A stretch of 64,000 nucleotides of DNA from assembly GCF_003790525.1 (NCBI RefSeq), contig NZ_CP033635.1; one strand, 5' to 3'. Position 1 is the first letter of the stretch. The number at the start of each line of letters is the position of its first letter. Of the stretch, positions 4,476 to 43,624 are shown piece by piece. The translations under genes were made by a program, and so were the position numbers. The DNA is from Escherichia coli (GTDB taxonomy: Bacteria; Pseudomonadota; Gammaproteobacteria; Enterobacterales; Enterobacteriaceae). Under the pieces are notes generated by a model, which was not told where the DNA came from, searched no databases, and saw only the letters and a list, made by a program, of their open reading frames with translations.

Positions 4476-5722
4476 GCCCGCCTACGCCAGAGTAAAAACA
4501 CGCCACAACAAAGAGAAAAATAGACGATATAGGTTGCCATATAGGCCTGCGCCGCGCCCAGTGCACCATGCGCAGGGATTAGCCAGTGGGAAAATACCAT
4601 CAATAAAGTGAACTGGCTGACTTCCGCCAGAATATAAAACCGCAGTGACGCTTTGGCGATCACCAGATAACCAAAGACATAAGCGCCCACTTTTAACACA
4701 TCACCTACCAACTGCCAGGCAAAGAGATCGCGCATAGCGGTAAATTTATTCGACAACAGCAGCCAGATAGCAAAATCACGCAGCAACCAGACGGAAAAAC
4801 TCGCCGCCGCCACTGCCGGTAAGACGAATTTCAGCGATTTAACCACTTCCCGGGTGATATCGCGCTTTTCCGTTAGCCGCGACAACGTGGGCAGCAAATA
4901 TACGCTGAACGATGCCGTAATAAATTGCAGGTAGGCATCGGAAATACTGCTCACCCCTTGCCAGATCCCCACTTCATCCCAGCTATACTGCGCCGCCAGC
5001 AGTTTACGCATCATGATGTAAGCAACAGGCAAGGTTACCGACGTAATCAACGCCATGAGCGTAAATTTGCTCAACTGCCCTGCCAGGCCGTTATCCCAGC
5101 TGGGTTTCAGATAGCTTAACGGGATTGCACCACGCTTAATTAGCATGATGACGGCAGGAATCACCACCAGCGCGGGAATCAACGCCAGCCCCAGCAACGC
5201 CCCTTCATAACCGCCCAAACGGTAACTGACGTAGTACGCAAGAACGCCAATCAGGCTGCCGACAATCAGGGATAACGCATTACCTGCGGCATCGCGAAAG
5301 CCTTTCATCAACGCCAGTAACAGGTTGCCCCAGGCGATCCCCATTTGCACCAACGCCACTAAACGCACCAGCCCCTGATAGTCGGTATTACCGAACAATC
5401 CCTGGCTGATTGGCGCAGCTGCCAGCACAAAAACCAGCGCCATTAGCATAGAGAAGCCAAGTACCATCGCTGATGAAGTGCCGACCACGCGGCGCAATTG
5501 TTGGGGATTATCATGGTACTGGGCAACGTATTTGGTTACGCCGTTAAAGATGCCTGCCCCGGCAAGCACGCCGAGCACGGTAATCAACTGGCGGAAATTT
5601 GCCGCCAGCCCAAGCCCCGCCGGACCAAATGACACTGCCAGCAACTTACCGACCAGTAACCCGGCACCAATCTTGACCAGTGTACTGGCCGCCGTCCACA
5701 AGGACGCTTTTGCCAACGACAT
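4472..5722 (-). CDS. wzxE: ECA lipid III flippase (Wzx family)
   Basis: 416 aa multi-TM ORF; cluster position. Confidence 0.9.
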
Positions 5723-24094: not shown

Positions 24095-24985
24095 TTGGAT
24101 TTACGCGATCTGAAAACCTTCCTGCATCTGGCGGAAAGCCGCCATTTTGGGCGCAGCGCGCGGGCAATGCACGTTAGCCCGTCTACGCTTTCGCGACAAA
24201 TACAGCGCCTGGAAGAAGATCTCGGTCAGCCGCTGTTTGTGCGTGATAACCGCACGGTAACGCTGACGGAAGCGGGCGAAGAACTGCGCGTTTTCGCCCA
24301 GCAAACGCTGTTGCAATATCAGCAATTGCGCCACACCATCGACCAGCAAGGGCCGTCGCTCTCTGGTGAATTACATATCTTCTGCTCGGTGACCGCTGCC
24401 TACAGCCATCTTCCACCGATTCTCGACCGCTTCCGCGCGGAACATCCGTCAGTGGAGATCAAACTCACTACCGGTGATGCAGCCGATGCGATGGAAAAGG
24501 TGGTCACTGGCGAAGCGGATCTGGCGATTGCCGGGAAACCGGAAACCTTGCCGGGCGCAGTGGCGTTTTCGATGCTGGAGAATCTGGCGGTGGTGCTGAT
24601 TGCTCCCGCGCTGCCCTGCCCGGTGCGTAATCAGGTCTCTGTCGAAAAGCCCGACTGGTCTACAGTGCCGTTTATCATGGCCGATCAGGGACCGGTACGC
24701 CGCCGCATTGAACTGTGGTTTCGGCGTAACAAAATCAGCAACCCAATGATTTACGCCACGGTTGGCGGGCATGAAGCGATGGTATCGATGGTGGCGCTCG
24801 GCTGTGGCGTGGCGCTGTTGCCGGAAGTGGTGCTGGATAACAGCCCGGAACCGGTGCGTAACCGCGTGATGATTTTAGAGCGCAGTGATGAAAAAACGCC
24901 GTTTGAGCTGGGCGTGTGCGTACAAAAAAAGCGGCTTCATGAGCCGCTGATTGAGGCGTTCTGGAAGATTTTGCCGAACCACTAA
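24095..24985 (+). CDS. ilvY: LysR-type transcriptional activator of ilvC
   Basis: Conserved N-terminus (M)[21 protein letters not shown] begins at a TTG codon; an in-frame ATG lies 28 codons upstream (24011) inside the promoter region, so start assignment is uncertain. Confidence 0.88.
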
Positions 24986-41238: not shown

Positions 41239-42666
41239 ATGAGCGATAAAAAGAAGCGCAGTATGGCGGGTTTGCCGTGGATCGCGGCGATGGCCTTCTT
41301 CATGCAGGCACTTGATGCCACTATTCTGAATACCGCCTTACCCGCAATCGCTCATAGCCTTAATCGTTCTCCTCTCGCGATGCAATCAGCCATCATCAGT
41401 TATACGCTGACGGTGGCGATGCTTATTCCGGTAAGCGGATGGCTAGCCGATCGCTTCGGTACGCGTCGCATATTTACCCTTGCCGTGAGTCTGTTCACGT
41501 TGGGTTCTCTGGCCTGCGCACTTTCTAACTCGCTACCACAGCTGGTTGTCTTCCGGGTTATTCAAGGGATAGGCGGCGCAATGATGATGCCTGTTGCTCG
41601 GCTGGCCTTACTGCGCGCTTATCCTCGTAATGAGCTTCTTCCTGTATTGAATTTTGTCGCCATGCCGGGTCTGGTGGGGCCAATTTTAGGCCCCGTTCTT
41701 GGCGGCGTGCTGGTCACCTGGGCAACCTGGCACTGGATATTTTTAATCAATATCCCCATAGGTATTGCGGGCCTTCTTTACGCGCGCAAACATATGCCCA
41801 ATTTCACCACCGCACGACGCAGATTCGATATCACTGGCTTTTTGCTGTTTGGCCTTAGCCTTGTTCTCTTCTCAAGCGGAATAGAGCTATTCGGGGAAAA
41901 GATTGTCGCCAGTTGGATTGCCTTGACGGTAATTGTCACCAGCATCGGGTTACTGCTTCTCTATATTCTCCATGCACGACGCACGCCAAACCCATTAATT
42001 TCATTAGATTTATTTAAAACCCGCACTTTCTCGATCGGTATCGTAGGCAATATTGCAACCCGTCTGGGGACCGGTTGTGTACCGTTCCTTATGCCATTGA
42101 TGTTACAGGTAGGATTTGGTTATCAGGCGTTTATTGCCGGCTGTATGATGGCACCGACAGCGTTAGGTTCCATTATTGCAAAATCGATGGTTACCCAAGT
42201 CTTACGTCGTCTGGGCTATCGCCATACGTTAGTGGGGATCACGGTGATTATTGGGCTAATGATCGCTCAGTTCTCTTTGCAATCACCGGCAATGGCGATA
42301 TGGATGCTGATCTTGCCGTTGTTTATATTAGGGATGGCTATGTCGACGCAATTTACCGCGATGAATACCATCACACTTGCCGATCTGACCGATGACAACG
42401 CCAGCAGCGGTAACAGTGTTCTGGCGGTCACGCAGCAACTGTCTATCAGTTTAGGCGTTGCTGTAAGTGCGGCCGTCCTTCGCGTTTATGAAGGGATGGA
42501 AGGCACAACGACTGTCGAACAATTCCACTATACGTTTATCACGATGGGCATTATTACTGTTGCTTCAGCAGCAATGTTCATGCTTCTGAAAACAACCGAT
42601 GGTAATAATTTGATCAAAAGACAGCGTAAATCTAAGCCGAACCGCGTTCCATCAGAATCGGAGTAA
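41239..42666 (+). CDS. hsrA: MFS transporter (12+ TM, drug:H+ antiporter-like)
   Basis: 475 aa hydrophobic ORF; synteny between yieP and rbsR. Confidence 0.9.
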
Positions 42667-43624
42667 GTTGTAATCGTTGTTGCTGAAGGGTCGGTTGGGT
42701 TATCCGATGGATGAGTACATCAATCGCCAGCTCCCCCAGTTCATCTTTCGGTTGATGGATAGTGGTTAATGGTGGCGTCATAAAGCTTGCCAGTTCGATA
42801 TCGTCATAGCCAATCACCGCGATATCCTGCGGAACCTGTAACTCTGCCTGATATAGCGCCTGGTAAACGCCAACAGCCATAGCGTCATTTCCGGTAAAGA
42901 CGGCCTGAGGACGCAGCGGATGTGATAACAGTTGGCGCATAGCGTCAAACCCGCCGTTAAATTCAAAATCACCAGTGACTTCATAGCCATCAGGAATGTT
43001 GAGACCCGCACGTTTCATCGCCGCCCGATAACCTTCCAACCTCAGGCGCGCCGGAGTTTTATCCAGCGGGCCGGTAATACAGGCGATACGGGTATGACCT
43101 TTATCGATCAGATATTGCGTTGCTAAGTCTCCGCCCAGCAACGAGTTATCCTGAATAAGATCGCTGTCGCCATCGAACGGTGCCCAGTCCATCATCACGG
43201 TAGGCACTGTCGGATAACGTTGCATGATTTCACGCGAAGGCTGATGCGTTTCGGTGCACAGTAACAGCAAGCCATCAACGCGTTTTTGCATCAGCGTTTC
43301 CAGATTGCGATTCATCCGTTGTTCATCGCCTTCGGTATTGCAAAGGACGAGACTATAACCGCGTTCGAAGCAGCTGCGTTCAACGCCACGCACCAGTTCT
43401 GAATAGAAAGGATTGGTACTGGCAGTGATCAACATGCCAATGGTATGTGTTTGATTGAGTTTGAGGCTACGCGCCAGAGCTGATGGCGCGTAATTGAGTT
43501 CTTTAATCGCCGCTTCAACTTTGGCGGTAATCGCTTCACTGACGAAGCGATCTTTATTGATAACGTGAGAAACTGTTGAGGTAGAAACGCCCGCCAGGCG
43601 GGCAACATCTTTCATTGTAGCCAA
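42632..43624 (-). CDS. rbsR: Ribose operon repressor (LacI family)
   Basis: 330 aa [32 protein letters not shown] (LacI helix-turn-helix); 3' end overlaps the hsrA 3' end by 35 nt. Confidence 0.95.

Follow-up and report, generated by a model that had tools for sequence, protein, structure and literature searches.

Convergent gene pairs with overlapping 3′ coding ends in Escherichia coli: hsrA/rbsR and ilvY/ilvA as probable products of stop-codon drift

In this study, we examined two tail-to-tail gene pairs within a 64,000-nucleotide stretch of Escherichia coli DNA (contig NZ_CP033635.1), referred to here at its full length as the window. The first pair is made up of hsrA (yieO; 41239..42666, plus strand), which encodes a DHA2-type MFS transporter of 475 aa, and rbsR (42632..43624, minus strand), which encodes the LacI-family ribose repressor of 330 aa. 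Both are present in the open reading frame list and as RefSeq coding sequences; hsrA corresponds to K-12 b3754 (hsrA) and carries the label 'mdtD' in the PGAP annotation. A first-pass annotation of this DNA had reported that the two genes have 35 bp in common at their 3′ ends, and the six-frame open reading frame list and RefSeq agree on this. The shared segment (42632..42666, both strands) encodes the last 10 residues of both RbsR and HsrA, and arithmetic on the coordinates places it in phase 123:132, with hsrA position 2 opposite rbsR position 3.

The second pair consists of ilvY (24095..24985, plus strand; RefSeq CDS 4236662..4237552), a LysR-type activator of ilvC with 296 aa and a TTG start, and ilvA (24982..26526, minus strand), the 514-aa threonine deaminase and last gene of ilvGMEDA; again the open reading frame list and RefSeq concur. 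The 4-bp overlap proposed for this pair at 24982..24985 is likewise real in the window, as seen in the open reading frame list, in RefSeq and in the sequence itself, which reads cac-TAA on the plus strand and TAG on the minus strand. These four bases, CTAA, are thus the ilvY stop TAA and the ilvA stop TAG lying on top of each other on opposite strands, and they belong to the four canonical convergent tetramers, of which the others are TTAA, CTAG and TTAG. Pfam domains extend almost to the end of both proteins, with HTH_1 and LysR_substrate reaching residue 293 of IlvY, and PALP and Thr_dehydrat_C reaching residue 512 of IlvA. HsrA and RbsR also contain Pfam domains and, together with the orthologous pairs found in 80 species, this identifies all four as real, conserved genes. 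The hsrA/rbsR pair is therefore a convergent overlapping gene pair in the full sense: its 3′ bases are shared, both genes are real and a stop codon has been relocated.

The same CDS ends are annotated in RefSeq for hsrA/rbsR and ilvY/ilvA of E. coli SMS-3-5 (NC_010498.1), and a 701-bp query across the hsrA/rbsR junction was 100% identical to that genome, in reverse orientation. Comparison of the full 64 kb with NC_010498.1 yielded nine differing positions within the rRNA operon (38421-39970), a net 3-bp length difference included, and two further differing positions outside it. The hsrA/rbsR junction was present at 95% identity or more in 5387-5414 of 5426 complete E. coli genomes. In K-12 MG1655, rbsR (3938227..3939219) and hsrA (3939185..3940612) have the same 35-bp overlap, and the junction sequence is identical.

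To place this junction in a wider context, we retrieved the hsrA locus from 80 Enterobacteriaceae species and located both stops. In all 80, hsrA and rbsR are convergent and abutting, at junctions that vary between a gap of 3 nt and an overlap of 53 bp. The 35-bp overlap of the window is found in 34 species (Escherichia, Citrobacter, Salmonella, several Enterobacter, Leclercia and Intestinirhabdus), and a 4-bp overlap in 26 (Raoultella, Buttiauxella, Pluralibacter, Franconibacter, Yokenella, Trabulsiella and others). Six species, mostly Kosakonia, have 9 bp in common, five (Lelliottia, Huaxiibacter and one Enterobacter MAG) have 53 bp, one (Kosakonia oryzendophytica) has 24 bp, and the remaining eight (Kluyvera, Phytobacter and others) have a gap of 2-3 nt. 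The part of HsrA that is conserved over the junction sequences ends in …KDGRNLIKERHK, and whatever follows is lineage-specific. In the 53-bp class the extension is on the RbsR side and amounts to six codons (…RGSVSAGGDL*).

As the overlap lengths differ by numbers that are not multiples of three, small indels or frameshifts appear to have moved the hsrA frame relative to that of rbsR. Two loci illustrate the scale of such a change: L028, with 4 bp in common (…cacaagaaagc followed by TTAG), and L008, with 35 bp in common (…cacaaaa followed by CTAAACCG…), differ in length by 4 nt just upstream of the rbsR stop. Judged from sequence, this 4-nt difference would suffice for hsrA to miss the stop-on-stop tetramer and to run on to the next in-frame TAA. 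The tight abutment in all 80 species is compatible with simple inertia but leaves a small chance for functional coupling. Selection for coupled 3′ ends, in place of inertia, could underlie this abutment, which would count against the reading preferred below.

We then asked which of the two proteins constrains the shared 35 bp, using codon-position variation computed over 35 sequences with the 35-bp overlap. The mean minor-allele count was highest (5.0) where the wobble base of rbsR faces the second position of hsrA, intermediate (2.5) where rbsR position 2 faces hsrA position 3, and lowest (1.45) where position 1 of rbsR faces position 1 of hsrA. Within this class there were 24 distinct HsrA tails versus 10 distinct RbsR tails, and seven of the last 10 RbsR residues were the same in at least 32 of the 35 sequences. 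RbsR is conserved up to its very end: Pfam Peripla_BP_3 spans residues 170-329 of 330, the alignment with PurR extends to residue 329, and the protein is identical to PDB 9ny7, a structure of 330 residues. The HsrA profiles end earlier, with Pfam MFS_1 covering residues 17-406 and NCBIfam NF007799 covering residues 13-465 of 475, so that the tail lies outside both and follows, in variable form, the core …NLIKERHK. A motif KP..(A/V)PSE.E does recur in the HsrA tails of the 35 sequences, and it mirrors TP(V/I)LMxRGS(A/V) of RbsR. Because substitutions track the codon structure of rbsR and the HsrA profiles stop short of it, we read the final 10 residues of HsrA as a passenger tail, gained through a frameshift or a shifted stop.

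The ilvY/ilvA overlap proved to be variable within the species. In K-12, ilvA (3955331..3956875) and ilvY (3956927..3957820) have no coding bases in common and are separated by 51 bp, a gap that is due to a 58-bp REP-like insertion. Alignment of K-12 to the window gives the inserted sequence as GGGAAAAATGCCTGATAGCGCTTCGCTTATCAGGCCTACCCGCGCGACAACGTCATTT. Going by the REP consensus, we take it to be a REP-type palindrome; it folds as a strong hairpin, and it provides ilvY with a new stop and one extra Lys. The K-12-type insertion was found in 2887 of 5426 complete E. coli genomes (~53%) and the direct junction of the window in 2336. Elsewhere, ilvY and ilvA overlap by 4 bp in Cronobacter, in Cedecea and in a locus labelled Salmonella (L086) and by 7 bp in Shimwellia, and in Erwinia they are 2 nt apart. 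Abutting genes are thus the arrangement in other genera as well as in the window, which suggests that the overlap is the older state and the spacer of K-12 the newer one. Two findings, the variable overlap length of hsrA/rbsR among species and the acceptance of a REP-like spacer at ilvA/ilvY in about half of E. coli genomes, speak against selection acting on the overlap as such.

Neither overlap is exceptional by its length or its frequency. When the 3′ ends of the 51 coding sequences of the window were read in the same phase, the first stop was met after a median of 56 nt, and after 35 nt or more in 67% of cases; the hsrA/rbsR overlap is no longer than expected by chance. Two of the seven convergent junctions in the window overlap, namely rbsR/hsrA (35 bp) and ilvA/ilvY (4 bp), and a third, asnA/viaA, has a gap of 4 nt; the others are spaced by 24 (maoP/yifB), 45 (ilvC/ppiC), 46 (rep/gppA) and 94 nt (tRNA-Trp/hdfR). 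Genome-wide, E. coli has been reported to contain ~58 convergent CDS overlaps, with an origin in stop-codon mutation, 4-bp tetramers as a described class, and 123:132 as the commonest phase among convergent overlaps of at least 5 nt (PMC2174442).

In light of these data, both overlaps are probably ordinary convergent overlaps that arose by stop-codon drift in gene pairs long abutting tail to tail, and have no dedicated regulatory role. The order of states that we infer for hsrA/rbsR begins with an ancestor in which, most likely, the two stops lay on each other in a 4-bp overlap or stood a few nucleotides apart. A short indel immediately upstream would later have changed the reading frame in the lineage of Escherichia, Citrobacter, Salmonella and Enterobacter, taking hsrA out of the frame whose stop lies on that of rbsR, and its translation would then continue for 10 codons through rbsR antisense to the next in-frame TAA. 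The shared 35 bp are constrained by RbsR, whose last residues are part of the conserved LacI/PurR core, and the HsrA tail would be a tolerated passenger. For ilvY/ilvA, the 4 bp are no more than two superposed stop codons (CTAA), a layout that is widespread in Enterobacterales and was apparently lost in K-12-like strains through the REP-like insertion.

With no intergenic space at either junction, termination has to take place inside the partner gene. It had been proposed in the first-pass annotation that no terminator can sit between the genes, and so far as the space between the coding sequences is concerned this stands for both pairs; it does not extend to termination as such, as an intrinsic-terminator-like hairpin for ilvA lies inside ilvY. 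Absence of intergenic space is hence not the same as absence of a terminator, and terminators within the partner CDS have been described for 21 of 58 convergent overlaps in E. coli (PMC2174442). The ilvA hairpin, identified by terminator scan and RNA fold, reads AGCGGCU-CAUGA-AGCCGCU followed by U7 (24948..24923, minus strand, with the stem-loop at 24948..24930). It starts 34 nt after the ilvA stop, within the ilvY codons for KKRLHEPL, and has the make-up of a predicted terminator, a GC-rich stem-loop with a U-run: its stem has 7 bp, five of them GC, its loop 5 nt, and its U-tract seven residues. The hairpin is conserved in K-12, Cronobacter, Shimwellia and Cedecea, and L086 has a different stem (AACGCCU…AGGCGUU) before the same U-run. 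As to the scan overall, it returned 4 candidates versus 2.9 expected from shuffles, which is no enrichment, and the Term-seq 3′ ends for K-12 (PMC7815308 Supplementary file 1) contain no ilvA-associated entry, and hence none at the hairpin. We propose that ilvA would terminate at this hairpin and U-tract embedded in ilvY codons. It cannot serve ilvY, because its U-tract lies in the ilvA direction only and it is upstream of the ilvY stop.

At hsrA/rbsR, a consensus scan and an inverted-repeat search revealed no intrinsic terminator within ~400 nt on the relevant strands, RNA folds on both strands did not surpass those of shuffled sequences (z −0.64 and −0.51), and an Rfam search (E ≤ 1) of both junctions gave nothing for this one. 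In the same search, a match to RF02926 inside ilvY was discarded as chance, its 19.6 bits being below the gathering score of 44.5. A bidirectional intrinsic terminator, that is, a hairpin with A-tract and U-tract beyond both stops, was absent from both junctions.

Termination by Rho, shown by others in K-12, offers a way out for the remaining directions. Bicyclomycin treatment of K-12 has revealed a Rho region at 3938923(−), ~262 nt beyond the end of hsrA, with a Rho score of 2.78 (p = 7.6e-6), and another at 3956067(−), where transcription on the ilvY strand is ~808 nt into ilvA, with a score of 3.70 (p = 2.3e-6) (PMC7815308 Supplementary file 2). Transferred to the plus strand of the window, these lie at ~42928 (42900..42960) in the hsrA direction, antisense to rbsR, and at ~25790 (25760..25820) in the ilvY direction, antisense to ilvA, positions that are coarse because the score is based on 800-nt windows (PMC7815308). 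Transcription in the hsrA and ilvY directions would accordingly be halted by Rho a few hundred nucleotides into the partner, antisense to it. For the opposite direction, the tables of the same study list no Rho region inside hsrA, and their Term-seq data have no plus-strand 3′ end between K-12 3938325 and 3941692 that could mark the end of rbsR; rbsR termination is presumably Rho-dependent as well. Base composition gives little guidance to rut sites here, C/G being only 1.3-1.9 within patches: between 121 and 220 nt beyond the end of hsrA the C/G ratio is 1.35-1.53, with a modest and not distinctive C>G stretch at 120-240 nt, and similar C>G patches follow the rbsR stop.

Coding sequences that overlap without intergenic space imply that full-length mRNAs are complementary over at least the shared bases. 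The proposal that transcripts read into the gene on the opposite strand is borne out in K-12, both by the excludon listing of rbsR-hsrA and by the Rho regions antisense to rbsR and ilvA. Of 58 K-12 transcriptomes, at least 50% show each of the 165 convergent 'excludons' in that listing, among them rbsR-hsrA (ExcludonFinder 2025, PMC12288877), an entry that is near-automatic for overlapping coding sequences once both genes are expressed; ilvA-ilvY is absent from the 165. For ilvA/ilvY, overlapping transcription and termination in K-12 were the subject, to go by its title, of a paper of 1989 (Sameshima, Wek & Hatfield 1989, J Biol Chem 264:1224, cited in PMC4161252). Further, 3′ ends overlap in 276 of 370 convergent E. 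coli operons (75%), with a mean overlap of 286 nt (PMC4161252), and readthrough into the neighbor is the norm for such operons whether their coding sequences overlap or not. The first-pass annotation is therefore confirmed in its observation and in part supported in its interpretation, in that readthrough finds support, the lack of a terminator needs the qualification given above, and a regulatory effect is unsupported.

Other explanations deserve consideration alongside stop-codon drift. Many long convergent overlaps in databases are misannotated 3′ extensions (PMC2478687), and by analogy one of the two coding ends at hsrA/rbsR could be wrong, the overlap being an artefact of annotation or sequencing. 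That reading is extremely improbable here, given that stops are set by the sequence and not by the choice of a start codon, that hsrA has no in-frame stop upstream of 42632, and that the junction, identical in K-12, recurs at 95% identity or more in nearly all 5426 complete genomes. In addition, all 80 species retain the RbsR end, which agrees with the crystallised protein of 330 aa, and 35 bp falls short of the length flagged in the same study, which deemed only convergent overlaps of more than 60 bp suspicious (PMC2478687). It could also be argued that the overlap, or the HsrA C-terminal tail it encodes, is under positive or purifying selection for protein function, for instance regulation of the transporter through its cytoplasmic tail. 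The recurrence of KP..(A/V)PSE.E in 35 sequences and the persistence of the 35-bp state across Escherichia, Citrobacter, Salmonella and several Enterobacter would fit such a role. Yet the motif is explained by the constraint on TP(V/I)LMxRGS(A/V) of RbsR, variation peaks at hsrA second positions, 46 of the 80 species do without this tail, and it lies beyond the MFS and NF007799 profiles, all of which makes a selected tail very unlikely.

A functional excludon is the remaining alternative. Here the lack of an intergenic terminator would couple hsrA and rbsR, so that ribose-induced readthrough from rbsDACBKR lowers yieP-hsrA expression, and perhaps the reverse, with the same logic for ilvGMEDA and ilvY; RNA polymerase coming out of rbsR would collide with polymerase on hsrA, or the antisense RNA would be cut by RNase III. 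Several observations would fit it: the pair belongs to the core 'excludome' of E. coli (PMC12288877), transcription in the hsrA direction enters rbsR by ~262 nt before the Rho stop, the genes abut in 80 of 80 species with no intrinsic terminator near the junction, and head-on polymerase collisions are on record for convergent genes of E. coli (bioRxiv 10.1101/2022.10.23.513370). Against this, the listing follows automatically for any expressed pair with overlapping coding sequences, 75% of convergent operons overlap transcriptionally in any case, the length of the hsrA/rbsR overlap is not conserved, and at ilvA/ilvY a REP-like spacer is tolerated in 53% of E. coli genomes and ilvA has a predicted hairpin terminator of its own. 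Moreover, our literature search found no evidence of reciprocal regulation for either pair, and nothing on regulation that treats hsrA/yieO together with rbsR. We thus regard a functional excludon as unlikely. A bolder version, in which the invariant lack of a spacer at hsrA/rbsR was itself selected and hard-wires a convergent excludon, with ribose-induced rbsDACBKR readthrough down-regulating the yieP-hsrA efflux operon (or the other way round) by polymerase collision or RNase III cleavage of an obligatory duplex, seems less likely again.

Stop-codon drift, the reading we prefer, places both pairs among the convergent overlaps that arise when a stop codon mutates or a 3′ end is extended (Rogozin 2002; Lillo & Krakauer 2007, PMC2174442; Palleja 2008, PMC2478687). 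As in that class, real genes share 3′ coding bases, with ilvY/ilvA representing the 4-bp CTAA type and hsrA/rbsR a short 123:132 overlap; overlap length shifts among orthologous pairs, and the extended tail is outside the conserved domain. The sole local difference is that the change from 4 to 35 bp at hsrA/rbsR needs a frameshifting indel and not a simple point mutation of the stop. Convergent excludons and overlapping 3′ UTRs (PMC12288877; Conway et al. 2014, PMC4161252) are similar in their complementary 3′ ends, and rbsR-hsrA is itself listed among them. However, what defines an excludon is that expression of one gene shuts out that of the other, by interference or by RNase III, whereas the likeness of hsrA/rbsR and ilvY/ilvA is one of transcript overlap alone, and this overlap is forced by CDS geometry and not by long 3′ UTRs. 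Bidirectional intrinsic terminators (Ju et al. 2019; Wang et al. 2022, bioRxiv 10.1101/2022.10.23.513370) likewise involve convergent genes and head-on polymerases, but the hsrA/rbsR junction is without a hairpin flanked by A- and U-tracts, and the ilvA hairpin has its U-tract in the ilvA direction only.

Both overlaps are already known, being part of the standard E. coli annotation and of a class analysed genome-wide since the early 2000s; ilvA/ilvY was studied experimentally in 1989, and rbsR-hsrA is in the excludon catalogue of 2025. As ordinary features of a known class, the overlaps as such matter little. The hsrA/rbsR pair is of use as a clear case of a C-terminal passenger tail that owes its seeming conservation to the gene on the opposite strand. 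The closest comparison for the other pair is ilvA-ilvY of K-12 (Sameshima 1989), which involves the same two genes and the same hairpin with U-tract inside ilvY, but has a 51-bp gap from the 58-bp REP-like insertion where the window, of SMS-3-5 type, has a 4-bp overlap. Our analysis adds that the ilvY/ilvA overlap is a polymorphism within E. coli, created by the REP-like insertion.

Sequence comparison of the ilvA/ilvY junction identified a 58-bp REP-like palindromic insertion, placed precisely at the junction, in 2887 of 5426 E. coli genomes (K-12-type). In the K-12 ilvA/ilvY locus used for comparison (L003) it occupies L003:1877-1934, for which the corresponding window site is 24982-24985. 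Owing to this insertion, the ilvA and ilvY coding sequences lie 51 bp apart in K-12-type genomes, and through it ilvY gains one lysine and a new TGA stop. The window is without the insertion and is of the SMS-3-5 type, represented by 2336 genomes. Approximately 200 E. coli genomes match neither junction allele, among them ECOR29, which gave a partial match only. At its 5′ end, ilvY starts with TTG in the window (24095), as opposed to GTG in K-12. Published K-12 Term-seq data place a strong 3′ end at 3957809(-), just 11 nt into ilvY (PMC7815308), a hint that transcription ends early, or that the RNA is processed, at the 5′ end of this gene.

A further convergent pair in the window, asnA/viaA, is situated at approximately 53700 (4207946/4207951 in the SMS-3-5 record, NC_010498.1), with a gap of just 4 nt; this pair is also found on the published list of E. 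coli excludons (PMC12288877).

The gene at 41239-42666 is labelled “mdtD: multidrug transporter subunit MdtD” by RefSeq/PGAP, a label derived from the subfamily model NF007799 (458.6 bits against a cutoff of 426). Its K-12 counterpart is hsrA (b3754, “putative transporter HsrA”), downstream of yieP, and the true mdtD is located elsewhere, in the mdtABCD operon. The name “mdtD” on 41239-42666 looks like a paralogue label. An Enterobacteriaceae-type hsrA-rbsR locus was also seen in CACSKA010000004.1, from a genome record titled “Chryseobacterium sp. 18061”; its hsrA product shares 86% identity with E. coli HsrA, and the locus is nearly identical to that of “Citrobacter sp. 18056”. This assembly is probably mislabelled or contaminated.

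For rbsR, the search with a 701-bp query spanning its junction with hsrA returned at least one E. coli match (NZ_AP027156.1) whose alignment ends after 277 of the 701 query bases and whose annotated neighbours are mdtD and rbsK, which together suggest a strain that has lost or rearranged rbsR beside hsrA. Within rbsR, a palindromic hairpin, ATCGCTTCACTGACGAAGCGAT, is present at window 43530-43551, approximately 75-95 nt from the 5′ end of the gene. In K-12, Term-seq identified a sense 3′ end internal to rbsR at this hairpin (3938325+), with a Rho termination region close by at 3938387+ (PMC7815308). These signals could reflect premature termination inside rbsR or at the rbsK-rbsR boundary.

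Differences between the window and NC_010498.1 fall nearly all within 38421-39970 (rRNA operon, 16S gene), where nine were found. Near 39449-39455 the two sequences differ in length by a net 3 bp, and paired changes at 39957, 39966 and 39970 fall within a short palindrome that reads GCAGCAAGCTGC in the window and GAAGCAAGCTTC in NC_010498.1. The differences look like heterogeneity of rRNA copies or assembly differences among rrn operons.
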